Shown: positions 20,697 to 40,533 of the stretch, piece by piece | Layout: each line of letters starts with the position of its first letter | How positions within the stretch are numbered: the stretch's first letter is position 1 | From: Patescibacteria group bacterium | GTDB taxonomy: Bacteria > Patescibacteriota > Gracilibacteria > UBA4473 | Assembly (NCBI GenBank): GCA_965660445.1 | Contig: CBFIAK010000001.1 | Span: 32,001-96,000, forward strand | Length of the DNA: 64,000 bases | Reading direction: 5' to 3' | Made by a program: the position numbers and the translations under genes | The notes under the pieces: model-generated | Database searches by the model: none | Told to the model about the DNA's origin: nothing | Seen by the model: only the letters and a program-made list of their open reading frames with translations

Positions 20697-20714
20697 TTTA
20701 TAACATTCTCTCTC

Positions 20715-20831
20715 ATGGCAAAAAAGAAAACATTTCGTATAAAAAAGAAAAAATTAGCCCTTCAAATAATCGTTTGGATTATTATTGTAGCGCTTTTAGG
20801 AACCGTCTTCTTACCTGCATTTTTAGGCTGA
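20715..20831 (+). CDS. 38-aa basic single-TM protein, absent from the ORF track
   Basis: MAKKKTFRIKKKKLALQIIVWIIIVALLGTVFLPAFLG*; its TGA overlaps the mnmA ATG (TGATG). Confidence 0.65.
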   Translation: MAKKKTFRIKKKKLALQIIVWIIIVALLGTVFLPAFLG

Positions 20832-21907: not shown

Positions 21908-21946
21908 TACTTGTCAAAAAATATTTTGTGTCTATAGTGAAAACAC

Positions 21947-23544: not shown

Positions 23545-24206
23545 ATCACAGATTTTCAATTCTTCGTTCGGTATTAGAACTCATCACGCTGATTGCTTTT
23601 TTTTATTTAGTGGTTCATTTAAATGGGCATGCCATACTGCTCTTGCTTGATCATGGACACGCAGATCATCACCACATAACCGAGACCGTATCTATTGTGT
23701 CTCATTGGGAAGAATGGGCATGGGGCATTGGAATAAGTCTTCTTTTTATTGGTATATGGCAAAAAACACCATTACGACACCTTATACCGTGTCAGCATGA
23801 ACATTGTCACACAGAAAAACCACTCTCCCATTTACTCGCCATTGGAGCTTTGTGTTTGCATTTTTTCCCGGAAGCAGGAATTCGATATTCATTACTCGAA
23901 ACATTCTCGTTTCAATGGGAATCAGTATTAGTACTCGTAGGGTTTATATCACACATACTGGTTGATATTCTCATTACATTTCATTTAGCGTCTTATTGGA
24001 ACACACTTCCAAAACGCATACTCTGTGTTCTCTTTATTGGAAGCATTTGGGGAGTCGCATTCTTTGCGCATAACTGGATAGACGTTATTTTTTCTCATAC
24101 AACAGAGGGGTTGTTTCTTTTAATAAGCGGGTTTATACTGTCGATGTTTCTTCATCTTCCTCATAAACCAAAATCATGTGTGGTTTGTGAATCGCAACCA
24201 TCATAA
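23541..24206 (+). CDS. His-rich multi-pass membrane protein, possible metal transporter
   Basis: HGHADHHH, CQHEHCH, LHFFPE; about 6 TMs. Confidence 0.5.
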   Translation: MNHRFSILRSVLELITLIAFFYLVVHLNGHAILLLLDHGHADHHHITETVSIVSHWEEWAWGIGISLLFIGIWQKTPLRHLIPCQHEHCHTEKPLSHLLAIGALCLHFFPEAGIRYSLLETFSFQWESVLVLVGFISHILVDILITFHLASYWNTLPKRILCVLFIGSIWGVAFFAHNWIDVIFSHTTEGLFLLISGFILSMFLHLPHKPKSCVVCESQPS

Positions 24207-25969
24207 TGGAACAAAAAACCGCTTTACGCATACTCAAAACCGGAGAAAACGTTTTTTTAACAGGTGCAGCAGGAACAGGAAAAACGTATGTATTGCATCA
24301 ATTTATAAAATGGCTCTACACACATCGCATATCAGTGGCTATTACGGCTTCCACTGGAATTGCCAGTTCTCATATTGCTGGGCAAACGATTCATAGTTGG
24401 AGTGGTATTGGTATTCGAGAAACACTCACTCGCAAAGACTGTGATACGATTGCTCGTAAAAAAGTGGTACGTGAACGAATTGAGTCGACTCATGTTTTGA
24501 TCATTGATGAGATGTCGATGATTTCTCGCCAAACACTTGAGGCTCTTGATGAACTGTTTCGGTTTATACGGTTATCAAACGCACCGTTTGGTGGTATGCA
24601 AGTGGTGGTATGTGGAGACTTTTTTCAGCTTCCACCAGTAAGCAAAACCCCTATACCCAACACACAAAAATTTGCGTTTATGTCTCCTTTATGGGGGCAA
24701 GCAAGGTTTCAGGTGTGTTACTTAAAAGACCAGTTTCGACAAAACGAAGACGATCTCGCTGGGTTTTTGGACGAAATTCGGTCAGGAGAAGTATCAGATA
24801 GTCGTATCAATCAGCTCCAAGAGTGTATTGAACGCACGCAAGAAGAAACTCCGGAACAAACCTATACGAAACTCTATACACATAACATTGATGTGGATAC
24901 ATTAAACGAAAAAGAACTAAACGCGCTGCCCTCTCCGGGATATGAGTTTGTAGGCATGGGATCAGGTGACAAATCGGGCATAGAAATACTAATGAAATCA
25001 GTATTAGTACCGCACCGTATGGTATTAAAAAAAGGAGCTCCTGTTATGTTTATTAAAAATAATCCAAAAGTGGGATACCACAATGGAACACTTGGCACCA
25101 TTACTGATTTTACATCAGAAGGGTTTCCCGTGGTCACGACACGAGACGATCGAGATATTTATGTAACACAGGAAGAATGGAGTATTCGTGATCGGTACGG
25201 AACACCTCAATCAACGTATAGCCATATTCCATTACGCCTCGCATGGGCTATTACCGTACATAAAAGCCAAGGGATGACACTTGATGAAGCAGAAATGGAT
25301 TTATCAAAGACGTTTGAAACAGGGCAAGGATATGTCGCGTTATCGAGAGTACGCAATTGGAGAGGATTAAGACTTCTCGGATGTAATAGCACAGCATTAC
25401 AGATTGATCCACTTGTATTACAAGCCGATAAACGGTTTCAAGAACTCTCACAAGACGGAGAACAAAACATACTCAATACCGATTCATCATTGATTGAAAA
25501 ACGTATTGAAGACAGACGTTTATCACAAGAAAATTCTATGAAAGAAGAAGAAATGCCTTTGTTTCTCTCTGAAAAAAAGAAAGTAAAAATAAAGAAGAGT
25601 GTAGTCAAACCAGAACCTCAAAAAAAAGTATCAACCTATAGTGTGACCAAATCGTTATTACTCGAGAAAAAGCCAATTGAGTCTATTATGGAAGCACGAG
25701 GAATGAATTATGATACGATTATCAAACACATTGAACATTTAGTCATAGAAACACCTGATTTAGATATCGATTATTTACGTCCTGAAAAAAAAGACATGGC
25801 AAAAATGACGATGGGGTTCATACAAGCAGAACAGAAAGCAACCGCTGAAGACCGTGATAAAGACGGACATGTAAAACTCAAACTTGTTTTTGAGACTCTT
25901 AATGAGTCTTATTTCTATAACGATTTAAAAATCGCACGACTTTTTTTATTAGACCGCACAAAAAACTAA
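24206..25969 (+). CDS. PIF1-family SF1B helicase with a C-terminal HTH
   Basis: GAAGTGKT, DEMSM, PFGG.Q...GDFFQLPPV, TVHKSQG and YVALSR motifs. Confidence 0.88.
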   Translation: MEQKTALRILKTGENVFLTGAAGTGKTYVLHQFIKWLYTHRISVAITASTGIASSHIAGQTIHSWSGIGIRETLTRKDCDTIARKKVVRERIESTHVLIIDEMSMISRQTLEALDELFRFIRLSNAPFGGMQVVVCGDFFQLPPVSKTPIPNTQKFAFMSPLWGQARFQVCYLKDQFRQNEDDLAGFLDEIRSGEVSDSRINQLQECIERTQEETPEQTYTKLYTHNIDVDTLNEKELNALPSPGYEFVGMGSGDKSGIEILMKSVLVPHRMVLKKGAPVMFIKNNPKVGYHNGTLGTITDFTSEGFPVVTTRDDRDIYVTQEEWSIRDRYGTPQSTYSHIPLRLAWAITVHKSQGMTLDEAEMDLSKTFETGQGYVALSRVRNWRGLRLLGCNSTALQIDPLVLQADKRFQELSQDGEQNILNTDSSLIEKRIEDRRLSQENSMKEEEMPLFLSEKKKVKIKKSVVKPEPQKKVSTYSVTKSLLLEKKPIESIMEARGMNYDTIIKHIEHLVIETPDLDIDYLRPEKKDMAKMTMGFIQAEQKATAEDRDKDGHVKLKLVFETLNESYFYNDLKIARLFLLDRTKN

Positions 25970-25970
25970 T

Positions 25971-26402
25971 ATGAAAGAGAACCAAATAGCCATTTCATGG
26001 GATGACGAACACGAAATGAAAACAGAATGGATTCAGTTAGAAAAAGCCATTACTGATAGAGGATCAAAATATAGTATTACGGCTGGCAGAGTAAGAACCA
26101 ATACTGAAATAAAACAGTTTCTAAAGAAAGTGAAATCCAATAAAAAGTATGCAAAAGCGACACATAATACATATGCCGTTCGTGTTCGAAAAGACGGAAA
26201 AGTTTACGAAAGTAAGAACGATGACGGCGAAACAGGAGCGGGGATGGTTATTTTAAGACAACTACGCAATCACAACTGGGTAAATATAGTGGTAGTGGTG
26301 ACACGTTGGTTTGGAGGAATACAATTGCATGCCGATCGGTTTCGACATGTGCAAGATGGAACTGATATGATACTGAATGTTCTGGAAACAAAAAAAGAAT
26401 AG
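25971..26402 (+). CDS. YigZ/IMPACT family protein
   Basis: ATHN, DDGETGAG and VTRWFGG motifs. Confidence 0.85.
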   Translation: MKENQIAISWDDEHEMKTEWIQLEKAITDRGSKYSITAGRVRTNTEIKQFLKKVKSNKKYAKATHNTYAVRVRKDGKVYESKNDDGETGAGMVILRQLRNHNWVNIVVVVTRWFGGIQLHADRFRHVQDGTDMILNVLETKKE

Positions 26403-26458
26403 ATTTTTCGCAAAAACGAGGTACAGTTTGAACAATTATTATTTCGTATTCCACAAAG

Positions 26459-27328
26459 ATGACCATTCCTCCAGAAGTGATGACACAGATTAAAAAAGCT
26501 CAACAAGGAGAAATGACTGAGTATTATATCTACACAGCGTTATCGCAGAGAGTTTCCCATACACACAACCGAGACATTTTAACCCGCATTGCTGAACAAG
26601 AAAAATCACACAGTGAGTTTTGGGCACAATACACAGGCACACAAGCCACACCAAACGCATGGAAAGTATGGTGGTTTACAACTATTGCTCGTTTATTTGG
26701 GCTTACGTTTGGATTAAGACTTATGGAAAAAGGCGAAGTACATGCACAAAGCATGTACGCATCAATTATCGAGTATGTACCTGAAGGCAAATCTATACTT
26801 GAAGACGAAAAACAACACGAACAAGAACTCATCGAATTACTCCATGAAAAAAAACTCGATTACATGGGTTCGGTTGTTTTAGGACTTAACGATGCGTTGG
26901 TAGAACTAACAGGCGCACTAGCAGGATTATCGTTTGCGTTTCAGAACACACATCTTATTGCTGTCACAGGGCTCATTACAGGTGTAGCAGCATCGTTTTC
27001 GATGGCAGCATCTGAATATTTATCAAATAAAGCAGATGGGAACAAAGATGCTCATATATCGGCTTTGTATACAGGGTTAGCCTATATTGGAACGGTTCTC
27101 TTTTTAGTCACTCCATTTTTCGTATTCACGCATTACGCAGTTGCTTTGGGAGTTTCGCTCAGTATATCAATTTTGATTATTTTCTTTTTCAATTTTTACC
27201 TCTCTATTGCACGAAACACAGAGTTTTGGAAACGTTTTTTTGAGATGGCGGGTATTAGTCTTGGTGTATCAGCTCTGAGTTTTGGTATTGGTATTTTTGT
27301 ACGATTTTATTTTGGGATTGAGGTATAG
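26459..27328 (+). CDS. Rubrerythrin-like domain fused to a VIT1/CCC1 transporter
   Basis: Two ExxH motifs; GLNDAL and SMAASEYL. Confidence 0.85.
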   Translation: MTIPPEVMTQIKKAQQGEMTEYYIYTALSQRVSHTHNRDILTRIAEQEKSHSEFWAQYTGTQATPNAWKVWWFTTIARLFGLTFGLRLMEKGEVHAQSMYASIIEYVPEGKSILEDEKQHEQELIELLHEKKLDYMGSVVLGLNDALVELTGALAGLSFAFQNTHLIAVTGLITGVAASFSMAASEYLSNKADGNKDAHISALYTGLAYIGTVLFLVTPFFVFTHYAVALGVSLSISILIIFFFNFYLSIARNTEFWKRFFEMAGISLGVSALSFGIGIFVRFYFGIEV

Positions 27329-27342
27329 CAAACACCAACCGT

Positions 27343-27418
27343 GTCCCGATATATCGAGAAACAGTATCCCTCCTTTTCATTGCCTCGTTTCACTCGTTAT
27401 TCAAAGCACATTCAACTG
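27343..27418 (-). repeat. tRNA-trailer repeat, copy 1 (inferred original 3' flank of tRNA-Ser)
   Basis: Colinear with 39588-39664, 51 of 77 columns identical by manual alignment. Confidence 0.7.
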
Positions 27419-27468
27419 TGGCGGGCAGAATATGTCTCCTACCCTTTATAGCTATTATTTAATATTTC

Positions 27469-27507
27469 AATGAGACAAACAAGACACTATAAAAAAGGGT
27501 GTCTCAA
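27469..27507. repeat. Left-end GAGACA/TGTCTC hairpin motif, copy 1
   Basis: AATGAGACAAACAAGACACTATAAAAAAGGGTGTCTCAA, nearly identical to 30548-30587. Confidence 0.85.
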
Positions 27508-27509
27508 AA

Positions 27510-30212
27510 TTAAAGATTATTTTTTGCCTTAATTAGCGCGATATCTTTATTATTATTTCTTGTTTTCAAAGAATCTAGGATCTTTTGACCTGCCTCTGGA
27601 GTCCAATATATTTTTAGGTTTTCTCTAGCTCGTGTAATAGCTGTATAAAAAATATTATGAGTAATCAACTCTTCTGTTTCGGCCGTGATTACAATCTTAA
27701 CCGAATTATATTCCAACCCTTGTGCTTTATGGATTGAAACTGCATAAGCTACCTGAAAAGGAATTATTGTGTCCAAAGAGTCATCATCTTCATCAGTACT
27801 TTTATACTTGTTAACAACAAAACGAATCACAGAGGTGTCATCAGATTCACTATCAAGAAGTTCAAGATCATACCTAGACGCTTCAAATCCATTGATAACT
27901 TTTCCAATTTCAATATCAAATTGTATTTGATCTTCAGAGCTATTTATATCGATGATTCTACCTTTTAAGTTATTATAAATTAAAGGCGAAAATCGTTCTG
28001 CCTCGTTAAACAAAATAGGATCATTGACCTTATAGGTTTGGATTCCCCATCTCACTGTTTTGTTTTTGTTATTATTTTGTAAAAACCTATTAATATTATT
28101 TATTCCATAAAGCCCATCATAATTTAAACAAAGAATAATTTCATCGTTTTGTGTATAATCAAAAATTGACTCATCAAGCCTTGCTGAATATTGGTTTCTT
28201 GTTATATGCTCAACAATATCATCATCAATATTTCGAACTTTATCCCAAAGATCAAGTAAGTTTTTATTTGTTGTTCGGTAAGGCTTCGTTAGTTCAAAAA
28301 CTGAATGATCTCGTATAAATGGTCTAATTACACTAAACCAATTTCCGAATAGAATTGATTCAATTTGGAATATGTCACCAACTAAAACTATAGATAAAAA
28401 AGAAACTTTCTCTAATATTTTTTGCATATCAGTATTACTAACAGTACTGCATTCATCAATAAAGAGTAGATCGAACTCACTATCTTGATTACTTCGAGAC
28501 AAGAACTTGGATATAGTTTGAAATTTGCAATTAGAGGCTTGAACTTTTCTTCTCAAATTATCTACAGCAGGGTTTGTGTTTGCTAGATAAAGTTTTCGTT
28601 CATCATTAAAAAAATGTGATATGTGATTTATCAGAGTTGATTTGCCAGTTCCTGCCGCACCATAAATTAGAGCTACTTTGGAGCTTTCAAACATTTGTTC
28701 AATAAACGATTTTTTTTGATCGCAATCAATATCGTAATCAGAAAAATTCAACCAAGCACTAACCGATTTCGAATAGTCTTTAAAGCCTGTTAATGAAAGA
28801 TCCTTTAATTCATTAATAATATATAATACATCTTTTTCATACCCCCTCATATAAATATGATTCTTATAGCTATCAAGTTTTCGATTTCCGTGAGTAAAAT
28901 AAAGTGAATTATTATAAGTTTGAATAAGATCATCAACATTCTCAAAATGATCTAACTCTTCTTGTGGAGTGTATAAATATCCATTAACTTCTGTGTTATT
29001 TTTCACAAATCTTGCGAGTATTTCGTGCTCTCTACCAGTTGAATCAATGCAATCAAACAAATCTGAAATTTTAGGATTATGGTTTTTTAGAGACGTATTA
29101 AATGGCATTTCATCAAAAGGAATACAACCATATTCAAGTTTTAAATCTGATAACTTTATACAAGATGTTCCTGTATACTGCTTTTTTATAATCTGGTTAT
29201 TTAACCGATAGAGCAAATAAGCAATAATATTATGACCTGCTTTTTTATTTTTAATTAAACCTCGACATTCGTCTAAAATACTCAAAAAATGTATAGTTTT
29301 AACTCTTGTTTTTAATGCATCCTGAAAATCTTTATAATTATCATCAGGAAGATTCATAATTTCAGGAACACTAAGACCAGACCTCTTAAGAAGAGACATT
29401 AGTTCTCGTGATTCTGGAGAGTTTCCTCTCATTTTAAGTTCACTTCCAAATATTTTGGCAAAATTATTGAGCTCACATGGCCTAATTGAGATCTCCCAAT
29501 CATCAATAATTTGAATCGGCATCTGTTTATTCAAAACACTTATATAATCATTACTAATTGAAAGTTTAACGGCATAATTTTTGGAAACATCAAATCGTGT
29601 AAATGCAATAATTCTATCAAATTTACTTATGTTATTACTTGCTCGAGTAAAAGTTACCTCATAATAAACTTCATATTGAACAAAAAAGGGTTTTATCTTT
29701 TGAATATAGTATCTGTCACCTGTGGATGATTTAGATCTTCTTGATGCTGGCTGTTTAATTTTGTCAACGATCTTTTCATAATACTCACTAAGTGCTGGAT
29801 CTGTATTTATGGGGAAATCACGAATATTACTAAGAACATCAAGTCCATACTGTCTTTTGAGAAAAGATCTTATTTTCAATAGGTATTCATAGTACTTCAA
29901 AATTAATCTTTCAGAGTTTTCTTCATCAAGGGTGTAATGAGAAGCTGAGATTTTTAACAAGCTATGAAATTTTTTTAAGAACTTCAACTTTCCCATTCGG
30001 CCTACAAAAGCATTAGCTTCCTCAATATTTTCGTAATTAATTTTTATATCATCCCCATTACTGAAAATCTTCAATGAGATATGTTCAACAAAATTCCTAA
30101 GCTGGGAAAGCATATTTTGAGAGAGAATACCCCTTTCTGTAACGTCAAATTTATCAATATTAGCACAAAGAAGTTTATCGATATCTAAGATGGCTTTATC
30201 TATTTTTTGCAT
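27510..30212 (-). CDS. 900-aa RecD-like SF1B helicase with a large uncharacterised N-terminal region
   Basis: GAAGTGKST, FIDECST, VGDIFQI, SIHKAQGLEY and YTAITRARE motifs. Confidence 0.85.
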   Translation of the reverse strand: MQKIDKAILDIDKLLCANIDKFDVTERGILSQNMLSQLRNFVEHISLKIFSNGDDIKINYENIEEANAFVGRMGKLKFLKKFHSLLKISASHYTLDEENSERLILKYYEYLLKIRSFLKRQYGLDVLSNIRDFPINTDPALSEYYEKIVDKIKQPASRRSKSSTGDRYYIQKIKPFFVQYEVYYEVTFTRASNNISKFDRIIAFTRFDVSKNYAVKLSISNDYISVLNKQMPIQIIDDWEISIRPCELNNFAKIFGSELKMRGNSPESRELMSLLKRSGLSVPEIMNLPDDNYKDFQDALKTRVKTIHFLSILDECRGLIKNKKAGHNIIAYLLYRLNNQIIKKQYTGTSCIKLSDLKLEYGCIPFDEMPFNTSLKNHNPKISDLFDCIDSTGREHEILARFVKNNTEVNGYLYTPQEELDHFENVDDLIQTYNNSLYFTHGNRKLDSYKNHIYMRGYEKDVLYIINELKDLSLTGFKDYSKSVSAWLNFSDYDIDCDQKKSFIEQMFESSKVALIYGAAGTGKSTLINHISHFFNDERKLYLANTNPAVDNLRRKVQASNCKFQTISKFLSRSNQDSEFDLLFIDECSTVSNTDMQKILEKVSFLSIVLVGDIFQIESILFGNWFSVIRPFIRDHSVFELTKPYRTTNKNLLDLWDKVRNIDDDIVEHITRNQYSARLDESIFDYTQNDEIILCLNYDGLYGINNINRFLQNNNKNKTVRWGIQTYKVNDPILFNEAERFSPLIYNNLKGRIIDINSSEDQIQFDIEIGKVINGFEASRYDLELLDSESDDTSVIRFVVNKYKSTDEDDDSLDTIIPFQVAYAVSIHKAQGLEYNSVKIVITAETEELITHNIFYTAITRARENLKIYWTPEAGQKILDSLKTRNNNKDIALIKAKNNL

Positions 30213-30547
30213 TCAAAAATAATTGAAGAAAATAATACTCTTATACTACTTTTTTGAAAAATATTGAATAGGATTCTTTATCCAAAAAAGGCAAAAGGGT
30301 CAATAAACTGTAACATTATAGTCTTTAATTCCACTGCCCTTACTGATCTCTCCACCATAGTGACCAACCTTCCAACCCTTTCGACGACTCTAAGGGTTTA
30401 AACAGGTCTTAACAAGCAAAAATCATAATGTACCACTCCCTAGGAAGTAGATCACTATGACGTATTAGTGAATTGTATGGCGGGCAGGAACGGTCTCATG
30501 TCTTATCTGTCATTATCATTAGCCTTTTTTGTATATCTTTTTATCAA

Positions 30548-30587
30548 AATGAGACAAATGAGACACTATAAAAAAGGGGTGTCTCAA
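30548..30587. repeat. Left-end GAGACA/TGTCTC hairpin motif, copy 2
   Basis: AATGAGACAAATGAGACACTATAAAAAAGGGGTGTCTCAA. Confidence 0.85.
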
Positions 30588-30698
30588 TTTTCATAATGTT
30601 ACAAATGTTACACCGTAGAAGGGGCATTAAATAAGGAAAAAAATCCTAGACTTCAAAATCCATTGCGTCATCAATTGAATACAAATTTTATTCAACAA

Positions 30699-31937
30699 AT
30701 GAATAAGTTAGTACCAGAAGTGAAATACTGCATCTATGCGAGGAAGTCGAGTGAATCGGATGAGAAACAAGCCCTATCGATTGGATCACAGATAACCGAA
30801 ATGCAACGGCTGGCAGAAAAAGAAGGACTCAAGGTCGTTGAGAGCATCCAAGAGAGCAAATCTGCCAAAGACTCGGGGCAAAGAGCAGGATTTACACAGC
30901 TTCTCGCAGGGCTTGAGGAAGAGCGGTTCAATGCCATTCTCACATGGGCACCAGATCGGCTGAGTAGAAATGCGGGAGACCTTGGGAAACTGGTAGATCT
31001 AATGGATCAGAAGGTGCTTGTGAAGATTCAGACAAGCGGACAGGCATTCACAAACACTCCTGATGAAAAATTCCTGCTCATGATCCTGTGTTCTCAAGCC
31101 AAGTTAGAAAACGATAACAGGTCAAAGAATGTGAAACGAGGACAACGAACACGGTGCGAAATGGGAACTAGTCCTGGACCCGTGCCACTTGGATATAAAC
31201 TCATCCGAGGACAAAAATACGGAGAAGCGAGTAAGATTTTAATCGATACGGAACAAGCCCCATTCGTTAAAAAAGCATTCGAATATATCGCTTATGAGAA
31301 CTTAAGTGGACGACAGGTAAAAGAATATCTGGAAGATGAAGGATTCCGTAATAAACAAGGGAAAGTCATTGGATATAGTCGAATTTTCAAAATCATTAAA
31401 GAACCGTTTTACTACGGTGAGTTTGATTATGGAGGAATCCGATACAAAGGAACTCATAAACCGATAATCACAAAAGAACTCTTTGATGCTGTTCAAGACA
31501 AACTGCAAAAATATGCGGTTCGAGAAAAATGGGGACGAAAAGATTTTTACTTCAATCGGATTCTGAAATGTGCTGAGTGTGGATCAGGTGTCAGTGGAAC
31601 AGAACACACAAACAGACATGGAACCAAATACATCTACTACAAATGCAACAAATATGGCGGAACAAAAAAATGTAGTTGCAAATACATTCGAGAAGAAAAA
31701 CTTTTTGAAGAAGTGGCAAAAATCATTGTCGACGTAAAAGAAGAACATCTTCGAATGAATCGACGAATCAAAGAAGACTTAATAATGATAAATCGGCATC
31801 ACAGAGAAAAACCAATAACAATCCAAGAGCATTTAATCTCCATACTCAAGGATGGAACGAAAAAAGAGAAATCTGATATTTTGAGGAGTTTTAAAGAGAA
31901 ATTATTATTGAAAGATGGGAAAATAGTATTGTTTTAA
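30699..31937 (+). CDS. Large serine recombinase (resolvase, recombinase and Zn-ribbon domains)
   Basis: YARKS catalytic motif, DRLSRN, PLGY, FYYG, HKPII, CAECG and YYKC. Confidence 0.92.
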   Translation: MNKLVPEVKYCIYARKSSESDEKQALSIGSQITEMQRLAEKEGLKVVESIQESKSAKDSGQRAGFTQLLAGLEEERFNAILTWAPDRLSRNAGDLGKLVDLMDQKVLVKIQTSGQAFTNTPDEKFLLMILCSQAKLENDNRSKNVKRGQRTRCEMGTSPGPVPLGYKLIRGQKYGEASKILIDTEQAPFVKKAFEYIAYENLSGRQVKEYLEDEGFRNKQGKVIGYSRIFKIIKEPFYYGEFDYGGIRYKGTHKPIITKELFDAVQDKLQKYAVREKWGRKDFYFNRILKCAECGSGVSGTEHTNRHGTKYIYYKCNKYGGTKKCSCKYIREEKLFEEVAKIIVDVKEEHLRMNRRIKEDLIMINRHHREKPITIQEHLISILKDGTKKEKSDILRSFKEKLLLKDGKIVLF

Positions 31938-32023
31938 CGTCAGGAATATACGAAGTTTTGCGACTGAAAGGAGTAAAATTTGGGTGAAGCCTGCAAGGAT
32001 TTTCTCTTTAAGCCTTGTTATGT
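31932..32023 (-). repeat. attC-like site 2 (apparently chimeric)
   Basis: Minus strand reads CACATAAC...GTTAAAAC; same layout as site 1. Confidence 0.72.
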
Positions 32024-32091
32024 GGTTTTTCTGCAAGAAAAACTGCTGGAGAAAATCTTTGATTTTCGTAAGCACAGTATGACGGAGGACA

Positions 32092-32589
32092 CTATCTACT
32101 AGAATAAAAATCCTGTATTTCTTTCCAACTTCCATCAATCTTTTTTGCTAAAGAGTATCTTGAGATTCTATCTTTTCGACTAATTAATTCTTTTGAAGTT
32201 CTATCAAATTGTGAAGATGATTTTGAAATTGTTAAATGTGGATTATAATTATCTTCAAAATATTGTTTTGCGATTACATCAAATTCTGAATCAGCATAAT
32301 TTCTTACAACAGAAACAATTCCTTTATGCAATTGCAAAAGCTCATCAGAACGAGATAATTTTAACACTAAAGAATCTTTATCAAAATCATCGAAACCTAA
32401 AGTTTCAAATTCAAAAGGATTAAAACTAATTTGAGAAAAATCAGTAACCAATTTATTTTCATGTTTAGGTTTCATATAGAAAAAACAAAGTGTAGAATGT
32501 AAACCAGAACTTGGTAGAACTAAATTATTTTGTCTCGAAATTAAATTGGACAATTCTTCGTTTGGTCGAAAATAAGCAAGATACTTCAT
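32092..32589 (-). CDS. 2H phosphoesterase (LigT/2'-5' RNA ligase-like); ORF of cassette 2 (31938-32653)
   Basis: Two HxT motifs, LHSTL and PHLTI. Confidence 0.8.
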   Translation of the reverse strand: MKYLAYFRPNEELSNLISRQNNLVLPSSGLHSTLCFFYMKPKHENKLVTDFSQISFNPFEFETLGFDDFDKDSLVLKLSRSDELLQLHKGIVSVVRNYADSEFDVIAKQYFEDNYNPHLTISKSSSQFDRTSKELISRKDRISRYSLAKKIDGSWKEIQDFYSSR

Positions 32590-32647
32590 AAATTAAGGAA
32601 AGAAATACAGTAATATAAATATTTGGATAGTGTTCGAGTAATATTGC

Positions 32648-32729
32648 ACATAACATCAGGATTTAACAAAGTTCGCGGAGCGAATTTGGGAAATTCCTGC
32701 AAGGAATTTCTGTTAAATCCTTGTTAAAT
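32648..32729 (-). repeat. attC-like site 1
   Basis: Plus strand TAACA-TC-AGGATTTAACA...TGTTAAATCCT-TGTTA forms a stem with a 2-nt bulge; minus-strand cores CATTTAAC and GTTATGTG. Confidence 0.82.
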
Positions 32730-32790
32730 GAGGGTGAGCGAAGCGAAAGGCTGCAAGCCGTCCCCGACTGACTGCAAGGAAGGAGAGTTT

Positions 32791-33309
32791 CTACAAACAA
32801 ACGTCATCAGTCAAGAGAATTTGCTTTTTACCAAGAATATGTTTTAAACTATCAATTGCCGAATCATGATTATTTTTCCCATGTAAAGAATTACAAGCAT
32901 CTTCAATTACAAAAGTTTCAATATTATTATCAAATAAATCCATCGCAGTTTTGATAATACAAACATCCGTGTAAATCCCAGTAAGATAAATTTTTGTAAT
33001 TTTATTAGTTTTAATGAATTCTTTTAATTCATTATTTAATACAGTATAAGTATTATGCTGAATGTTTATATTGTCTGATGTTTGTAATTCGGAAAATAGT
33101 TTTTGATCTTCTTTATTTTGAAATTTAGTCCAACTTAATTGTTTTTCAAATAAAGATTTTCCATCATTAACAAATGTTGGAAAAACTATTTTTCCATTAA
33201 ATGATTCTTTCAATTTTAAAAGATTCGGCAATATATTCTCAGATTCTTGGTATCTAAAACCTTCTTGCATATCAATTATTAAAAGCAAATTCTCCATAAT
33301 ATAAAACAT
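32791..33309 (-). CDS. Isochorismatase/cysteine hydrolase family protein; ORF of cassette 1 (32654-33354)
   Basis: LLIIDMQEGF, GIYTDVCI and IEDAC motifs; start may be ATG 33297. Confidence 0.85.
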   Translation of the reverse strand: MFYIMENLLLIIDMQEGFRYQESENILPNLLKLKESFNGKIVFPTFVNDGKSLFEKQLSWTKFQNKEDQKLFSELQTSDNINIQHNTYTVLNNELKEFIKTNKITKIYLTGIYTDVCIIKTAMDLFDNNIETFVIEDACNSLHGKNNHDSAIDSLKHILGKKQILLTDDVCL

Positions 33310-33347
33310 AAATTACTTTGTATATAAAAGTTTGTTTGTAGAAATTT

Positions 33348-33370
33348 CATTTAACTCGTTTTTATCCAAC
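33348..33370 (-). other. attI-like recombination site
   Basis: Minus strand GTTGGAT-aaaaacga-G/TTAAATG; the GTTAAATG core exactly complements the CATTTAAC of site 1. Confidence 0.7.
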
Positions 33371-33382
33371 CTTTGTATTTCA

Positions 33383-33411
33383 AATATAGCAATTTCTTGT
33401 ATGTTATGCAA
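33383..33411 (-). promoter_or_regulatory. Pc-like promoter facing the cassettes
   Basis: TTGCAT-17 nt-TATATT with an extended -10 TG on the minus strand. Confidence 0.55.
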
Positions 33412-33431
33412 ACTTTTATTATTCTTTGGAT

Positions 33432-34244
33432 ATGGAAAATATTTTGGACAAAACCGAACGAGTTTGGAAATTGAGAAACTACTCCCCAAAAACTCGCAAA
33501 GCATATCTGTTCTACATAAGAGAGTATATCAGTTTTTCTAAAGGAAAAGGAATTAAAGATAAACAAAAAGCGATTGAAGATTTTTTGCTTGATAAATACA
33601 ATCGTAAACAATCTCCGCAAACAGTTAATCTGGCACTCAATGCGGTAAAATTTCTGTACGCGGAAGTTTTGAAAGATCCACAAAAGATTGACTTGAAGTT
33701 TGCGAAGAGAGACAAGAAATTACCCATTGTTTTGTCTCATGCAGAAATTAAAGAAATTATCCAGGCGACTGAAAATGCAAAATACAAACTCATGATTTCG
33801 CTTGGCTATGCTTGCGGTCTGCGTGTGAGTGAAGTTATAAATCTACGTGTTGCAGATTTGGATATTGATGAACTCGTCGTACATATCAAAGGAGCAAAGG
33901 GGAAAAAAGACAGAATCAGTGTTTTGCCAGAAAAATTACAAAATGATTTGCGAAATATCATTGCAGGCAAAAGTAATAATGATTTTATCTTTGCCTCTAA
34001 TCGAGGAGGAAAACTCACAACAACGTCTTTACAAAAAATGTTCCGCAAAAGTTTAGCCAATACGAACATAAGAAAACCCGCTACCTTTCACTCATTGCGT
34101 CATTCATTCGCCACGCATTTACTCGAAAATGGAACCGATGTGAGATATGTGCAAGAACTGCTTGGGCATTCCAACATCCGCACCACACAAGTGTATACGC
34201 AAGTAACAAATCCAAAGTTAAAGAACATAAAAAGCCCTTTATAA
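33432..34244 (+). CDS. IntI-like tyrosine recombinase lacking the IntI-specific insertion
   Basis: N-terminal LRNYSPKTRKAY, KKLPIVLS, GLRVSE, KGKKDR, HSLRHSFATHLL, LGH...TQVYT and a C-terminal SPL. Confidence 0.9.
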   Translation: MENILDKTERVWKLRNYSPKTRKAYLFYIREYISFSKGKGIKDKQKAIEDFLLDKYNRKQSPQTVNLALNAVKFLYAEVLKDPQKIDLKFAKRDKKLPIVLSHAEIKEIIQATENAKYKLMISLGYACGLRVSEVINLRVADLDIDELVVHIKGAKGKKDRISVLPEKLQNDLRNIIAGKSNNDFIFASNRGGKLTTTSLQKMFRKSLANTNIRKPATFHSLRHSFATHLLENGTDVRYVQELLGHSNIRTTQVYTQVTNPKLKNIKSPL

Positions 34245-34402
34245 ATATTTTTAAAACTGCCCTTATCGCACATACCTCATAGGAAGCAAAAACTCCTACC
34301 CATGCGACGACTTTGAAGGCTTTATCAACGCTAAATACCCCAAATGTCCCAATGCCCCATCCACCATAGTGGAAAGGAACCAGGTGCCATTAGTGCGTTG
34401 TC

Positions 34403-34493
34403 TGGCGGAGAGAGAGGGATTCGAACCCTCGGTTCCGGAAAACGGAACACACGCTTTCCAAGCGTGCGCATTCGACCACTCTGCCATCTCTCC
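34403..34493 (-). tRNA. tRNA-Ser(GGA)
   Basis: GGAGAGATGGCAGAGTGG...CTTGGAAAG...long variable arm...GGTTCGAATCC...CCGCCA. Confidence 0.96.
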
Positions 34494-34587
34494 TTTTCAT
34501 CGCATTGGCGGTATCCTATCACAAACGTTCCTTCATTCAAGCAAAAAAAGTTGAAAAAAATCCGAAAAACTCCCACAATCAAAACAC

Positions 34588-35616
34588 ATGAATCGATTAT
34601 TCTGGCTATCAAGTCTCTTTTTATGCACCGTCGCATGGGCATCTCCCATGCCTTATAAGGCGTCATTACAGTCATATACCAATCAAAGAATCCCTCAAAA
34701 TGCAGTTGGGGCGCATATAGCCACGCTTCATATACAGGCTCATGAAGACATTGCTGTTTCTGAAATCCATGTATGGGCGAAAGGACTCGTCACCAGTGAC
34801 GATTTTGAAAATGCATGGATCGAAACGAGTACTCAAGTTTCAAGCTTTCAATCGCCTTTTTTTAATGATAACACCAGTCATATACGGTTTCGAGACCCTA
34901 TTTATATCTCAAAAAACGAAGAAATAAGTTTTGATATATTTTTAAGTCTGCGCCAGAACATTGCGAATCGAAATTTTTCACTTGATGTCCAAAACATAGT
35001 ACTTGAAAACAAAAACCACAAAACAACGCCTATCACTTTACTCGAAACACAGCAAACAACTATTTCTGGATTCGAAGCACCTGAAATAAAAATCATACCG
35101 CTTGGTTCAGATACCGTAATTCCCATGGGACGCACACGAGAACTTGCACGGTTTCAAATACAAAACACAAACGCAACACCTATAAATCTTAAAAACATTC
35201 AACTCGAAAACATTGGTACGGCGAACTTGCATGAGAGTTTTTCTTCTCTCAGTCTTATACATCAAAACACCGTACTCGCAAACGCATCACCACAACAAAA
35301 TGAAACGATTACTTGGGAAATTCCTTCGTTTGTTATCGAAAGAAACCAATCGGCAACATTCCAAGTCAGCGGACAACTTCTCTACGCACAAGACGGAAAA
35401 ACTCTCCAGTTTCAAATCAAAAACGCTACTGATATAAAAACAAAACACAATGATCAGTCTTCATATGCTCGTATTATCTCATCATTACCCGTTTCACTCT
35501 CTACTCATACACTTCGCGGAGGCGGACTATTTACACGCCCATATAGACACAAATATTCTGGATTGCGTCGATCAGGAATCGAAATAAAAAACCCGTGGTA
35601 TTTTCGCAATCACTAA
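34588..35616 (+). CDS. Exported protein with two beta-rich (Ig-like) repeats
   Basis: Signal peptide ending in AWA; two similar beta-rich halves. Confidence 0.6.
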   Translation: MNRLFWLSSLFLCTVAWASPMPYKASLQSYTNQRIPQNAVGAHIATLHIQAHEDIAVSEIHVWAKGLVTSDDFENAWIETSTQVSSFQSPFFNDNTSHIRFRDPIYISKNEEISFDIFLSLRQNIANRNFSLDVQNIVLENKNHKTTPITLLETQQTTISGFEAPEIKIIPLGSDTVIPMGRTRELARFQIQNTNATPINLKNIQLENIGTANLHESFSSLSLIHQNTVLANASPQQNETITWEIPSFVIERNQSATFQVSGQLLYAQDGKTLQFQIKNATDIKTKHNDQSSYARIISSLPVSLSTHTLRGGGLFTRPYRHKYSGLRRSGIEIKNPWYFRNH

Positions 35617-35818
35617 AGAACAGAAAAACCCGCAAAACAAAGCAAAAAAATTTGACTTATTCTGTATCACAATTATTATCGCCCCCGATTATAGTTTGTA
35701 TACAAATCTTGTGTTTTTCTTTCCATGCAAAAAAAACTTCTCCAATAAAGCATTACTGATCTTGTTTGGTAAAGCTCTATAAGAGTGTTTATTTTTATTT
35801 TTTCACCCTTCTTGTTCT

Positions 35819-38800
35819 ATGGTTGCCGTACAAAAATTCAATTTTCCAGCAAAACTTTCTCCTGTAAAAAAAGAAGGAGAACGATATTTTTTCACGTCTG
35901 ATATCGGAGATGGGTTTGAGTTCCCAGATCTTATTCAAGTACAAACCAATTCTTATGACTGGTTTTTAGGAGAAGGACTTCAAGAACTCATTGATTCTAT
36001 AAATCCTATTGAAGACGCAACAGGAAAAAAACTAAAACTAGAAATAAAAAGTTACGACATTGAACCTCCTAAATACGATTTAGATACGTGTCATAAAAAA
36101 GGATTGTCATATGAATCAATCATTCGAGCACAAGTAGCGCTCACCAATCTTGAAACTGGAGAAATCAAGGAACAAGAAGTTTATTTTGGACAAATTCCAC
36201 AAATAACAGATCAAGGAACATTTATTATTAATGGGATTGAACGGATTATTGTTTCTCAAATTGTACGAAGCCCTGGAGCGTTTTTTGCAGAAATGCAAAA
36301 CATGCCAAATGCATTTACAGCAAAACTGATTCCAAAACGAGGAGCATGGATTGAAATTGAAACTGACAAAAGAGGTCTTATTTGGGTGAAAGTCGACCGA
36401 AAACGAAAAATACCAGTGACCATGTTTTTGCGAACATTCGGGTATGATACGGATAAAAAAATTCTAGACTTGTTTAAAAATGAAACAAAAGGACTCACTG
36501 AAAACCCAATTTTAAAAACACTTGAGAAAGACGAAGCAACAACTGAAAAAGAAGCATGGCAAGGAGTTTATAAACGAATTCGTCCAGGAGATTTAGCAAC
36601 ACCTGAAAACGCTAAAGTGTTTTTAGATGATATGTTTTTAAATTTTCGAAAATACGATTTAGGACCTATTGCGCGATACAAAATCAATAAAAAGTTTGAT
36701 TTAAAAACGCCAAACACTCCAGAAGGCCGCACTTTTCAATTAGAAGACTTTATTGAAATGGTACGTGAAATTATACGACTCAATAACGGATCAGGACAAG
36801 GTCCTGACGATATTGATCATTTAGCGAATCGACGTATCCGAGGGGTAGGAGAACTCGTACAAAACAAGTTTCGAATCGGATTGCTTCGAACAGAACGTAT
36901 TATTCGAGACCGAATGTCTATTGTCGATCTCGAAACCGTGACTCCAACTCAAATTGTAAACTGCAGACCAATCACAGCTGCAATGCATGAGTTCTTTGCA
37001 TCTGCACAACTTTCGCAATTCATGGATCAAACAAATCCTTTAGCCGAACTTGAACACAAACGACGAATTTCAGCTATGGGTCCAGGGGGGCTTTCACGAG
37101 AACGAGCATCATTTGAAGTACGTGACGTACACCCATCTCAATACGGGCGTATTTGTCCGGTCACAACACCAGAAGGTCCGAATATCGGACTCGTATTACA
37201 CTTAGCATCGTATGCAAAAGTGAATGAATATGGGTTTTTAGAAACTCCATATCGAACAGTCTCTCATGTAATTGCAAATGATGGAACTGCTGTCATAGGA
37301 CGAAGAGTAAAAGAAGAAATCCTTGATGGAAAAAAAGTTATTATCTCAAAAGACCAAATCTGCACAAAAGAACAAGCAGAAGCCATCAAGAAAATAAAAG
37401 ACAAAAAAGAAATTAAAGTACAGGCTTATATCACAGATGAAGTACAATATTATGACCCAGATGCTGAACGAAAAATGTGTATTGCACAAGCGAACACCAT
37501 TTTAAACGACAGAGGAGAATTTACGAAAAGTTTTATTTCTGCTCGTAAAAACTATGAACCTGGAACCTATGATGAATCGATGGTGACACATATTGATATT
37601 TCTCCAAAACAGATTGTGTCTCTTTCTACATCACTTATTTCATTCCTTGAACACGACGACAATACTCGTGCATTGATGGGATCAAACATGCAACGACAAG
37701 CAGTTCCTCTTATTATGCCAGATTCCCCTATTGTTGGAACAGGAATGGAAAAGATCACATCACGAGACCAATGTATTCGAGCTGAAGAAGATGGAGAAAT
37801 TAAGTATGCTGATGCGAATGAAATCGTATTTGTCAGCAAATCAGGAAAAAAGAAAACATATTCACTCAAAACATTTTATCGATCAAACCAATCGACTTGT
37901 ATCACACAGAAAACAAAAGTAGTGAGTAAACAAAAAGTAAAAAAAGGTGATGTCTTAGCTGATGGAGCTTCTGTAGAAAACGGAGAGCTTGCCATTGGGC
38001 AAAACTTGATCGTTGCGTACATGTCATGGAGTGGGTACAACTACGAAGATGCGATTATTATTTCTGAACGGTTAGTAAAAGAAGGGTCATACAATTCTAT
38101 TCATATTGAAAAATATGAACTCGATGTTCGTGACACAAAACTTGGGCCCGAAGAACTCACTGCAGACATTCCAAACGTAGCAGCCGCAAAACTCAAAGAC
38201 TTAGACGAAAATGGATTGGTTCGTATTGGATCAACGGTTCTGGCAGGAGATATTCTTGCCGGAAAAGTGACTCCGAAAGGAGAAAGTGAATTAACCGCTG
38301 AAGATCGATTATTAAGAGCTATTTTTGGAGAAAAAGCAAACGATGTAAAAGATTCTTCTCTTCGGCTTCCACGAGGATCTGGAGGGAAAGTGATTGACGT
38401 AAATATACTTGATCGATCACAAGGTGACGATTTACCAAATGGAGTATTGAAACGAATTCAGATTTTAGTAGCACAGCTACGACATTTAGAAGCAGGAGAC
38501 AAAATGGCAGGACGACACGGGAACAAAGGAGTTATTTCTCGAGTTGTACCAATTGAAGATATGCCACATATGGAAGACGGAACGCCAGTTGATATTATTC
38601 TTAATCCTCTTGGGGTATCGTCTCGTATGAACATTGGACAAATTCTCGAAACACATTTAGGAATGGCAGCCTATAAGATGGGTATAAAAGTAGCAACTCC
38701 AGTACTGAATGGAATCTCGTTAGACAAAATACAAGAGTTCCTCAAAGCAAACAATTTACCGGAAGACGGAAAGTTCCAACTCTATGACGGACGAAGTGGA

Positions 38801-39466
38801 GAAGCGTTTAAAAACCGAACAGTGGTAGGGATTGCCTATATGGTAAAATTAAGTCACTTGGTGGAAGACAAAATGCATGCTCGGTCTGTTGGACCATACT
38901 CATTAGTAACCCAACAACCGTTTGGAGGGAAAGCACAAAACGGAGGTCAGCGGTTAGGAGAAATGGAAGTTTGGGCACTCGAAGCATACGGAGCAGCACA
39001 CACACTTCAAGAAATGTTAACTATCAAATCCGATGATGTACATGGGCGAGGAAAAGCGTATGAAGCAATTGTAAAAGGTGAACCAATCGAACTTATTTCT
39101 ATTCCTGAATCGTTCAACGTGCTTATTAAAGAGCTTCAAGCATTAGGACTCAAAGTAGAACTCTTAAAAGACGGACAAGAAGTAAACGATAAGATTATTC
39201 AGTCACTTGATCCAAAAGAAGACCAGAAACGACAAGAGTATGAAAACGAAAAACTCAAATCTGAAAAAAGTTTATTAGAAGAATCAGAAGATTTTCAAGA
39301 AGTAGCCGATGAAGACGATGTTATCGCTCATGAAGCAGGACTCGGAATTTCATTAAGTGATGAAGAAACGGGAGTCGATGACGATGACGATGACGATGAC
39401 GATCGCCCACAAGATGAGAATGAAGATGGATTTGACGATGACGACGATATTCGAGAAGACAACTAA
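35819..39466 (+). CDS. rpoB: RNA polymerase beta subunit
   Basis: FIINGIER, SQFMDQTN, TPEGPNIG, GDKMAGRHGNKG and GQRLGEMEVWALEAY; long acidic tail. Confidence 0.98.
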   Translation: MVAVQKFNFPAKLSPVKKEGERYFFTSDIGDGFEFPDLIQVQTNSYDWFLGEGLQELIDSINPIEDATGKKLKLEIKSYDIEPPKYDLDTCHKKGLSYESIIRAQVALTNLETGEIKEQEVYFGQIPQITDQGTFIINGIERIIVSQIVRSPGAFFAEMQNMPNAFTAKLIPKRGAWIEIETDKRGLIWVKVDRKRKIPVTMFLRTFGYDTDKKILDLFKNETKGLTENPILKTLEKDEATTEKEAWQGVYKRIRPGDLATPENAKVFLDDMFLNFRKYDLGPIARYKINKKFDLKTPNTPEGRTFQLEDFIEMVREIIRLNNGSGQGPDDIDHLANRRIRGVGELVQNKFRIGLLRTERIIRDRMSIVDLETVTPTQIVNCRPITAAMHEFFASAQLSQFMDQTNPLAELEHKRRISAMGPGGLSRERASFEVRDVHPSQYGRICPVTTPEGPNIGLVLHLASYAKVNEYGFLETPYRTVSHVIANDGTAVIGRRVKEEILDGKKVIISKDQICTKEQAEAIKKIKDKKEIKVQAYITDEVQYYDPDAERKMCIAQANTILNDRGEFTKSFISARKNYEPGTYDESMVTHIDISPKQIVSLSTSLISFLEHDDNTRALMGSNMQRQAVPLIMPDSPIVGTGMEKITSRDQCIRAEEDGEIKYADANEIVFVSKSGKKKTYSLKTFYRSNQSTCITQKTKVVSKQKVKKGDVLADGASVENGELAIGQNLIVAYMSWSGYNYEDAIIISERLVKEGSYNSIHIEKYELDVRDTKLGPEELTADIPNVAAAKLKDLDENGLVRIGSTVLAGDILAGKVTPKGESELTAEDRLLRAIFGEKANDVKDSSLRLPRGSGGKVIDVNILDRSQGDDLPNGVLKRIQILVAQLRHLEAGDKMAGRHGNKGVISRVVPIEDMPHMEDGTPVDIILNPLGVSSRMNIGQILETHLGMAAYKMGIKVATPVLNGISLDKIQEFLKANNLPEDGKFQLYDGRSGEAFKNRTVVGIAYMVKLSHLVEDKMHARSVGPYSLVTQQPFGGKAQNGGQRLGEMEVWALEAYGAAHTLQEMLTIKSDDVHGRGKAYEAIVKGEPIELISIPESFNVLIKELQALGLKVELLKDGQEVNDKIIQSLDPKEDQKRQEYENEKLKSEKSLLEESEDFQEVADEDDVIAHEAGLGISLSDEETGVDDDDDDDDDRPQDENEDGFDDDDDIREDN

Positions 39467-39478
39467 AGAAAAAAAATC

Positions 39479-39510
39479 AAAAGGCAGAAACTTATTATTT
39501 CTGCCTTTTT
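39479..39510 (+). terminator. Intrinsic terminator-like hairpin after rpoB
   Basis: AAAAGGCAGAAA-cttatta-TTTCTGCCTTTTT. Confidence 0.75.
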
Positions 39511-39512
39511 AA

Positions 39513-39587
39513 GCACGTATCGTATAATGGCTATTATACGGCCTTGCCAAGGCTGAGACACGGGTTCGACTCCCGTTACGTGCTCCA
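39513..39587 (+). tRNA. tRNA-Gly(GCC)
   Basis: GCACGTA acceptor stem, CTTGCCAAG anticodon loop, GGTTCGACTCC and TCCA end. Confidence 0.95.
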
Positions 39588-39664
39588 CAGTTGAATTTGA
39601 GATAAGCAAGGAGCGAAGTGACGCAGTCGAATCCAAAGATACGGTGTCCCAAATACATCGGGAC
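39588..39664 (+). repeat. tRNA-trailer repeat, copy 2
   Basis: Homologous to 27343-27418 on the minus strand. Confidence 0.7.
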
Positions 39665-39813
39665 TATTTCAAGTACGTCATCATCCTAGAAGCGACAAGC
39701 GAAGCGAGTCGGAAATGGAATGTTGTCGGAACAAAGAAAAATAAACATAAAAATTAAAAAACAAGTTTCCATGGAAAAAGAAAAAGATTAATATACGATT
39801 AAGAAAAAAACTC

Positions 39814-40533
39814 ATGGAAATAATAACACTTGTTGTATTCACTTTTATTGCATCGGCAATTGGTACAACGACAAGTTTTGGGACATCAACATTTATGGTT
39901 CCTGTTCTCGGTTTTTTTTACCCACTTCCCATCACATTACTATTTAGTGGTATTATCCATTGGCTTGGGAATCTTTGGAAAATGCATTTTTTCCGTTCGG
40001 GAGCCCAAACAAAACTTATTCTTTTATTTGGTATCCCCGGAATCATAACGAGTTATTTGGGAGCGCAACTCATTCCTGATATTTCAGAAGTATTACTATC
40101 GCGATCACTCGGAATATTTTTTATACTCTATGTTCTTTTTTTGTTCAAACACAAAAACTGGAAAATAATCGCCAATACACCAAGTGCTTTGATTGGAGGA
40201 GTTTTATCGGGGTTTAGCTCTGGTATATTTGGAGTAGGTGGTGCTATTCGAGCGGCGTTTCTCTCTGCATACGATTTAAAAAAAGTAAGCTTCATTTTTA
40301 CGGCAGGAGCGATTGGAGTCTTTATTGACACAGGAAGAATAACAAAATACATGCTTGACGGAGTAACACTCGAAAACAATTTACTCATTGCTCTGGCATT
40401 CGCTATTCCTGCTTCATTTCTTGGTGGATATGCTGGTCGAAAAATAAACGACAAAATTCCTCAAGAAAAATTTCGAAACGTTATTGCATTTGCATTATTA
40501 CTTATGGCTTTTAAATATATTTTTTGGCCATAA
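39814..40533 (+). CDS. TauE/SafE (TSUP) family transporter
   Basis: About 8 TMs; SFGTS...P and GIFGVGG motifs. Confidence 0.82.
   Translation: MEIITLVVFTFIASAIGTTTSFGTSTFMVPVLGFFYPLPITLLFSGIIHWLGNLWKMHFFRSGAQTKLILLFGIPGIITSYLGAQLIPDISEVLLSRSLGIFFILYVLFLFKHKNWKIIANTPSALIGGVLSGFSSGIFGVGGAIRAAFLSAYDLKKVSFIFTAGAIGVFIDTGRITKYMLDGVTLENNLLIALAFAIPASFLGGYAGRKINDKIPQEKFRNVIAFALLLMAFKYIFWP

Follow-up and report, generated by a model that had tools for sequence, protein, structure and literature searches.

The window examined here, a stretch of 64,000 nucleotides from a contig of a Patescibacteria group bacterium (CBFIAK010000001.1, positions 32,001 to 96,000), very probably carries an integron-like gene-capture platform, whose 272-aa tyrosine recombinase is close to the integron integrases and is without their extra domain. 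An earlier note on this DNA had proposed an integron-like system with an insert-less integrase and atypical cassette-end sites (attC), and this proposal is now supported by 16 loci of the same layout (type A, below), by a rule of matching cores, by covariation in the stems of the sites, and by the end of homology at the attachment site beside the integrase (attI). As far as sequence comparison can establish such things, the anatomy of the platform, its point of exchange, the compensatory conservation of the stem and the presence of variable content behind a constant platform are established. The detailed mechanism, in which the site would act as a folded single strand and one strand would be exchanged, is held with less confidence than the reading at the level of the system.

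The integrase gene (33426 to 34244, plus strand) is divergent from two open reading frames (ORFs), both on the minus strand as the earlier note had them. Cassette 1 (32654 to 33354, minus strand, 701 bp), delimited by core matching and by a contig of another metagenome run (X4, below), would comprise one ORF with attC 1 at its 3' end; the ORF (32791-33309, minus strand) has the domain matches of an isochorismatase-family hydrolase. Cassette 2 (31939 to 32653, minus strand, 715 bp) likewise has one ORF (32092-32589, minus strand), assigned by domain matches to the 2'-5' RNA ligase / 2H phosphoesterase superfamily, and its end 5-mers, ATGTG and CACAT, match 5/5. The putative attI (33348 to 33367, plus strand) reads CATTT|AAC and then the conserved TCGTTTTTATCC; it was recognized as a recurrent motif at which homology breaks, and the crossover would fall within the AAC at 33353-33355. 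The cores of attI and cassette 1 are CATTTAAC at 33348-33355 and GTTAAATG at 32723-32730, and those of cassette 2 are CACATAAC at 32647-32654 and GTTATGTG at 32017-32024. All of these 8-mers were found where the earlier note had placed them, and the claim that the cores match cassette by cassette holds, with 5/5 at both junctions.

The attC-like site 1 (32647 to 32730, plus strand) has an R box, a 2-nt bulge, an 11-bp L stem and a two-branch apex, and was found both by folding and by a covariance model built from other genomes (R1, below). Its predicted fold (z = -5.9 on the plus strand and -6.2 on the minus strand, with 0 of 200 shuffles as stable) consists of an AAC/GTT closing stem, the 2-nt bulge next to the core, the 11-bp stem and two apical hairpins, which bears out for this site the bulge and branched apex described previously. 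Site 2 (31931 to 32024, plus strand) is also found by model R1 and is degenerate, with arms that no longer pair. It is hybrid-looking, the left arm being nearly identical to sites of other loci (e.g., L121 and L031) and the right arm resembling site 1; crossover at the R box alone would not yield such a site. BLAST found no further copy of site 1 in the genome, and Rfam has no family for these sites, a tRNA being the sole Rfam match in 27000-35000. A loose pattern scan of the genome was uninformative, giving 74 matches against 43-53 in shuffles, with the family cores in site 1 only. Between the cassette 1 ORF stop and site 1 (32731-32790) there is a GC-rich stretch with recurring GAGCGAAGCG-like and GTCCCC motifs. 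Such stretches, 50-70 nt long, follow about one third of the sites, also at L121, L031, L026, L030, L116, L118, L119, L122 and L045, and are found at high depth in other metagenomes; many other sites are followed by ATGTA instead.

To compare these features with those of related loci, we fetched up to 8-10 kb around integrase homologs from related genomes, a species-level genome collection and metagenome contigs, many of the homologs lying at contig ends. The nearest homologs come from metagenome-assembled genomes (MAGs) labelled Patescibacteria, Peregrinibacteria or Saccharibacteria. Covariance model R1, made from 8 sites of other genomes and none from the window, finds site 1 (32.4 bits, E 3e-5) and site 2 (30.2 bits, E 1e-4) as well as new sites elsewhere. 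A second model, R2, made from 16 sites, finds 37 sites at E < 0.01 in 22 loci; in a scan of the window's own genome, with 150 of 571 candidates scored, it returned site 2 alone. In the architecture shared by the sites, X5-AAC is followed by a spacer of 3-4 nt and a stem of 11-12 bp, which leads into a three-way junction; the return stem comes next, and then a single base and GTT-Y5. The sites are imperfect palindromes that carry R''/R' (AAC / GTT) boxes as well as L boxes, and what is conserved in them is the structure. The sites fall into two arrangements relative to the integrase. In type A (16 loci, with the layout of the window), 28 of 28 sites are upstream of the integrase and on its strand, and in type B, 9 of 9 are downstream and on the other strand; the remaining two possible arrangements account for none of the 37 sites. 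The earlier note had proposed, as a check, a covariance scan of homolog neighbourhoods combined with a comparison of cores. Arrays were found beside homologs, sites being present at the 16 type-A loci, and their cores match above controls. Of the 17 type-A loci whose sequence extends 1 kb or more upstream, 14 have sites. Two other approaches were set aside: a scan by energy threshold for AAC...GTT folds of any kind gave too much noise to be of use, and a generic stem scan of 80 loci from the genome collection was noisy as well and gave leads only.

Sites of the family also occur away from the integrase, on other contigs of three genomes (G004, G047 and G060) and in at least nine genomes without an integrase match. 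On contig 13 of G060, four sites stand in a row with no neighbouring integrase.

In the mechanism that we propose, the recombinase would insert circular single-gene cassettes at attI (X5|AAC TCGTTTTTATC), about 75 nt upstream of its own start, and would excise them by recombining the structured attC-like site that closes each cassette on its 3' side, with the crossover in or beside the conserved AAC/GTT triplet. If the crossover is at this triplet, five flanking bases travel with the cassette, and if circular cassettes are inserted there, the flanking 5-mers of neighbouring sites should match. Under the rule that we tested, the five bases that follow GTT in one site are the reverse complement of the five that precede AAC in its neighbour on the integrase side. 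Of 14 pairs of adjacent sites, 9 obey it in full (5/5), and the mean is 4.36, versus a mean of 2.31 and 3.2% perfect matches for 1158 control pairs taken between loci, and none of 100000 resamplings reaches the matching observed in adjacent pairs. Within a single site, the left and right 5-mers match at background level (mean 2.77, n = 35), as would be predicted for an integron array and not for a simple palindrome. The rule extends to attI. The motif X5|AAC TC.TTT.TAT, or a variant of it, recurs 54-169 nt upstream of the start codon of the homologs, so that an attI adjoins the integrase gene, and in 10 of 16 loci the 250 nt that precede the integrase start contain an exact copy of the 8-mer expected from the nearest site, compared with 8 of 240 mismatched control pairs. 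The exact 8-mer is always at the conserved attI motif, where four further loci match 7/8. For type B, the expected 8-mer is present in all seven loci, in five of them at a motif resembling this one, 67-126 nt beyond the stop codon of the integrase.

The stems of the 37 sites give a second line of evidence. Standard pairs occupy 95.0% of cells, against 67.1% in shuffles, and none of 500 shuffles reaches the observed value; the AAC/GTT pairs are kept in 99.1% of cells, and all 11 pairs of the L stem have changes on both sides. When the partner is slid by 1-3 columns, pairing falls to 30-44%. Fitting the alignment to the covariance model tilts it toward the structure; an effect of this magnitude, and the slid controls with it, nevertheless argue that the covariation in these sequences is real.

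The content of the cassettes varies while the platform does not. Inter-site intervals are mostly 0.5-1.0 kb or 1.5-1.8 kb long, and the largest ORF is directed away from the integrase in 22 of 26 of them, as for co-oriented, mostly single-ORF cassettes exchanged at the core triplet. A Pfam scan of 20 cassette ORFs from other loci gave eight matches above cut-off (a Mrr-type nuclease, a P-loop kinase-like protein, a radical SAM protein, a metallo-beta-lactamase-fold hydrolase, a DNA methylase, two NUDIX proteins and a gamma-glutamyltranspeptidase), two below cut-off, and ten ORFs with no match. DNA homology with the closest relative (G004, 82% amino acid identity in the integrase) is limited to 33344-34249, from attI to 5 nt past the stop codon, and beyond attI the relative has methylase-like ORFs instead. 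Public sequencing runs, compared as contigs only, show similar boundaries. Contigs from two runs of another study (X2 and X3) agree with 33343-34237 apart from scattered differences, and past this stretch they no longer resemble the window. A 560-nt contig from a third study (X4), a run with nearly no cover over the integrase, matches cassette 1 at 33260-33354 and is unlike it beyond; 33354 is the first cassette base under the proposed crossover. These single contigs are consistent with a mobile cassette and are no proof of one. Three joints that appeared to skip about 550-600 bases between sites were rejected, since their short sides (23-32 letters) are likely cross-matches of similar sites.

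These boundaries also bear on the possibility that the recombinase is the integrase of a genomic island at a tRNA-Ser gene, the two sites being unrelated intergenic repeats. The integrase gene does end 159 nt from the 3' end of a tRNA-Ser (34403-34493), the region from 27 to 34 kb is low in GC (0.29-0.30, against about 0.37), and a serine recombinase and a helicase adjoin the array. Homology with the closest relative, however, stops 5 nt past the stop codon and the downstream context differs; no tRNA repeat is found among the 20 largest direct-repeat families of 20000-40000; and the core-matching rule would be left unexplained. We therefore regard a tRNA island as very unlikely.

The protein itself is most similar to the integron integrases. 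Translated from a TTG start, the ORF yields 272 aa; with the ATG at 33432 as start it yields 270 aa, the length stated in the earlier note. It has the Pfam domains Phage_integrase and Phage_int_SAM_4. Its top NCBIfam match is TIGR02249 (integron integrase), at 226 bits and thus below the cut-off of 265, and the alignment comes in two pieces, residues 6-180 matching 1-178 of 315 and a second stretch following. The closest solved structure is VchIntIA, the integron integrase of Vibrio cholerae (2a3v, 161 bits), with XerA structures next at about 140 bits. This alignment is likewise split, query residues 13-206 matching 12-210 and 197-272 matching 242-317, so that about 35 residues of VchIntIA have no counterpart. 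Aligned with two classical IntIs from the fetched loci, the protein shows gaps of about 26 and about 11 residues where the latter carry extra sequence. The IntI-specific additional domain around patch III is thus missing, as the earlier note had recognized. Fourteen aligned homologs (40-82% identity) are of equal short length and none has the insert, and R133, H222, R225, H248 and Y257 are invariant among them, in keeping with the earlier statement that all catalytic residues are present. One relative, L067, had been scored as insert-bearing by a pattern-based measure of insert length, and alignment showed that it has no insert. The NCBI family NF040815 ("site-specific tyrosine recombinase/integron integrase") is matched above its cut-off by the relatives L063, L044, L050, L054 and L047; the window integrase does not reach that cut-off.

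We considered whether the protein might be a chromosomal dimer resolvase of the XerC/D type or else an ordinary classical IntI. It scores on the models of both kinds, with 226 bits on TIGR02249, 209.7 on XerA_Arch (cut-off 220), 181.8-182.5 on XerD (cut-off 329.6) and 178.6 on XerC (cut-off 335.15), but every one of these scores is under its curated cut-off, so that it scores neither as a normal IntI nor as a XerC/D, either of which would have told against the earlier note. The bacterium's genome (0.99 Mb in 5 contigs) holds only two tyrosine recombinases, this integrase and a Xer-like one, which scores 220.7 bits on the XerD model. The Xer-like gene is found in 58 of 61 related genomes and in all 36 of the same family, compared with 15 of 61 and 6 of 36 for homologs of the window integrase. 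The latter therefore neither reaches a Xer family cut-off nor occurs as one conserved copy across relatives. In a phylogenetic tree of 72 rows (LG+G4, 8 of them Xer rows, with 17 near-duplicate rows removed beforehand), E. coli XerC and XerD and six Xer-like genes of relatives are split from all of the IntI-like rows with support of 100/100, and the window integrase lies within a 19-row type-A clade (100/96). Patchy occurrence, scores below cut-off and separation in the tree rule out a housekeeping Xer, the absence of the IntI insert speaks against a classical IntI, and we think it extremely improbable that the protein is either.

The tree omits L043 and L108, which have internal stops, and L034 and L035, which are broken or recoded copies. 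The last two (from G046 and G047, respectively) are integrase homologs with in-frame TGA or other stops; one of them may come from a lineage that reads TGA as sense, its Xer-like gene having six TGA codons, and the other looks like a broken second copy.

Several observations weigh against an integron-like platform served by this integrase. Five of the 14 adjacent pairs match in just 3-4 of 5 positions, and L029 and L031 fail the attI test, with 5/8 and 6/8. No site was found at L021, L024 and L028, 3 of the 17 type-A loci that reach 1 kb or more upstream. With only two cassettes the array of the window is short, and the earlier description of an AAC...GTT hairpin behind each ORF stands for site 1 and fails for site 2, which is homologous to it (80% identity over aligned columns) and yet does not fold into a hairpin on either strand (z = +0.54 and +0.83). 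This site, distal in the array, looks decayed from its sequence. The joints expected of circles or deletions (33354-32654 and 32653-31939) were not found in the contigs of four runs; since rare variants are dropped from contigs, their absence weighs neither way. A whole-genome scan, which was limited to 55 candidates per genome, did not recover the sites of the window and gives counts that are lower bounds, found sites in 9 of 46 genomes without an integrase match, compared with 10 of 15 with one. Finally, action on a folded strand by an enzyme without the I2 helix would go against experiments on classical IntIs (Escudero 2020).

Some of these points would be accounted for if the array is real and the neighbouring recombinase is not its enzyme, the cassettes being relics that were moved earlier or in trans, as for attC clusters lacking an integrase, and the 272-aa protein carrying out ordinary site-specific recombination of double strands. 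The sites in genomes without an integrase match, the decay of site 2, and the link drawn in classical work between folded-attC recombination and the I2 helix all favour such an explanation. The only other tyrosine recombinase available in the genome, however, is the Xer-like one; integrase, attI motif and array keep a fixed geometry in 16 type-A and 7 type-B loci; and the attI, of which a cassette-specific 5-mer is part, is 54-169 nt away from the start of the integrase. We consider a non-cognate enzyme unlikely, and prefer the view that the adjacent recombinase is the enzyme that moves the cassettes.

The site would act as a folded single strand or a cruciform, because the complementary halves of the R box are 70-180 nt apart and meet only by folding. 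Resolution may follow the integron pathway of one strand exchange plus replication. The L stem has no extrahelical base, and a 2-3-nt bulge is present on the AAC arm instead, which would fit an enzyme without an I2 pocket.

The additional domain, with its I2 helix, has been treated as the defining innovation for recombination of folded single-stranded attC sites (Escudero 2020). A family with all of the footprints of cassette capture and without that domain would offer a direct test of the domain's necessity, and is a candidate for the state that preceded the innovation. In the tree, 13 insert-bearing IntIs form one clade (100/100), and when the tree is rooted on Xer this classical clade is nested among insert-less, array-bearing lineages (L119-L122, type A and type B), so that the presence of the insert requires a single change. 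Deep nodes are weak (80/87 or without resolution). The tree is read most simply as one gain of the insert, later than the origin of arrays, and this reading is not established. The nesting, together with the core rule that type B obeys at 7 of 7 loci, is the basis of a further proposal, which we hold to be evenly balanced between right and wrong: integrases without the insert may form a widespread, and perhaps ancestral, integron branch of Patescibacteria-type genomes and DPANN-like lineages, with an inverted layout among Bacteroidota and Spirochaetota. If it is true, cassette capture through folded hairpins needs no I2 helix and may predate it, and many complete integrons will have been entered as integrase-less arrays, or overlooked altogether, wherever a census demanded the insert. 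The family could thereby explain seemingly integrase-less arrays in uncultured lineages, and would put a platform for gene capture into a genome of 0.99 Mb and into MAGs that bear Patescibacteria or DPANN labels.

The seven type-B loci (L049, L052, L053, L063, L132, L142 and L156) are labelled Bacteroidota or Spirochaetota or lie on unlabelled metagenome contigs, and two of them are from cultured isolates, Winogradskyella ursingii and Flavobacteriaceae bacterium S0862. The type-B integrase is insert-less and in many cases is about 375-390 aa long, with an N-terminal extension.

Other features of the window lie near the array. Between the integrase start and attI there is a promoter-like match pointing into the cassettes (33383 to 33412, minus strand; TTTGCA-18-TATATT with TG), in an AT-rich region that gives 20 such matches where 10.4 are expected from shuffles, and it is hence only a lead for Pc. 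At the far end, a large serine recombinase gene (30663-31937) ends where the array ends, its stop codon overlapping the last AAC. A homolog of this gene (L023, 6677-7703, about 66% nucleotide identity) is found tail to tail with the integrase homolog in G047, a genome of another family. The platform may be carried on some larger element. Farther on, two 31-nt direct repeats (27469-27499 and 30548-30578, 94% identical) bracket the gene for a 900-aa helicase of the RecD/SF1 type (27510-30212, minus strand, GC about 0.29), and at this repeat the contig graph of the source run is broken and leaves several loose ends.

The system of the window resembles classical integrons (VchIntIA and the Vibrio arrays) in most respects. 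In both, the integrase is divergent from an array of single-ORF cassettes and has attI beside it; the cassette-end sites have R boxes (AAC / GTT) and L boxes and are conserved in structure rather than in sequence; the R-box flanks match cassette by cassette, with crossover at AAC/GTT; and integron integrases are the best matches of the protein, in sequence and in structure. The differences lie in the enzyme, which is without the additional domain, and in the site. According to Nivina 2016, 5'-AAC-3' and the extrahelical bases stand on opposite arms of the recombined bottom strand of a classical site, and an unpaired central spacer separates the R and L boxes. The array beside the Vibrio atypicus IntI has this layout on the integrase-sense strand, with unpaired spacers of 3/3 and, in the L arm on the GTT side, one additional base. 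In the present sites the L stem, of 11-12 bp, is uninterrupted, with no extrahelical base near L''. Instead of a roughly symmetric unpaired central spacer, the integrase-sense strand has a bulge of 2-3 nt on its AAC arm, the spacer being 3-5 nt on that arm and 1 nt on the GTT arm. The apex, unlike that of the classical sites, forms a conserved three-way junction in which a …GTT… / …AWTTGGG motif recurs, and model R1 gives no match on the Vibrio sites. The I2 helix is described as docking the extrahelical bases and as blocking the second strand exchange (Escudero 2020); since the helix docks those bases, the absence of both from the present system is coherent. Judged from its sequence, then, the system lacks two formal marks of an integron, the insert and the extrahelical bases, while it shows the functional footprints.

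The Xer recombinases (XerC/D and archaeal XerA) and the elements that exploit them (IMEX and CTX phage) share with the window integrase a similar size and domain layout and the lack of an I2 helix, and CTX phage is cited by Escudero 2020 as a case in which an insert-less Xer acts on a folded single strand that mimics a duplex site. Unlike Xer, the window gene is neither universal nor a single-copy housekeeping gene, is below the Xer cut-offs and separate in the tree, and belongs to a type of integrase tied to variable cassette arrays and not to one dif site.

Previous surveys come close to this family from two sides. A full-text search that left subscription journals and supplements outside its reach found no paper on an insert-less integrase tied to attC arrays, and none on integrons in Patescibacteria or Peregrinibacteria. 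The survey presented with IntegronFinder 2.0 covered complete RefSeq genomes. On the side of the protein, Smyshlyaev 2021 (PMC8138268) reports that the insert is not fully conserved in "integron-like" simple tyrosine recombinases and yet treats it as essential for integron function; its insert-less relatives are described at the protein level, with no tie to attC arrays, attI or cassettes in the portion of the paper drawn on here. On the side of the sites, Ghaly 2022 (PMC9668308) counts 6 IntIs for 539 attC sites in 75 archaeal genomes, so that an IntI could be detected for a minority of the arrays, with an IntegronFinder IntI call that requires a match to the insert-specific profile. This requirement lends indirect support to the suggestion of the earlier note that standard tools may miss such a system. 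The IntIs of that study, unlike the present integrases, have the additional domain, as its method demands. The archaeal integrons are like the present system in belonging to uncultured lineages with small genomes, including DPANN, and some have attI directly downstream of intI, as our type-B loci do. In our tree, insert-less relatives from MAGs labelled Nanoarchaeota, Pacearchaeota and Woesearchaeota cluster with the array-bearing metagenome loci L119-L122.

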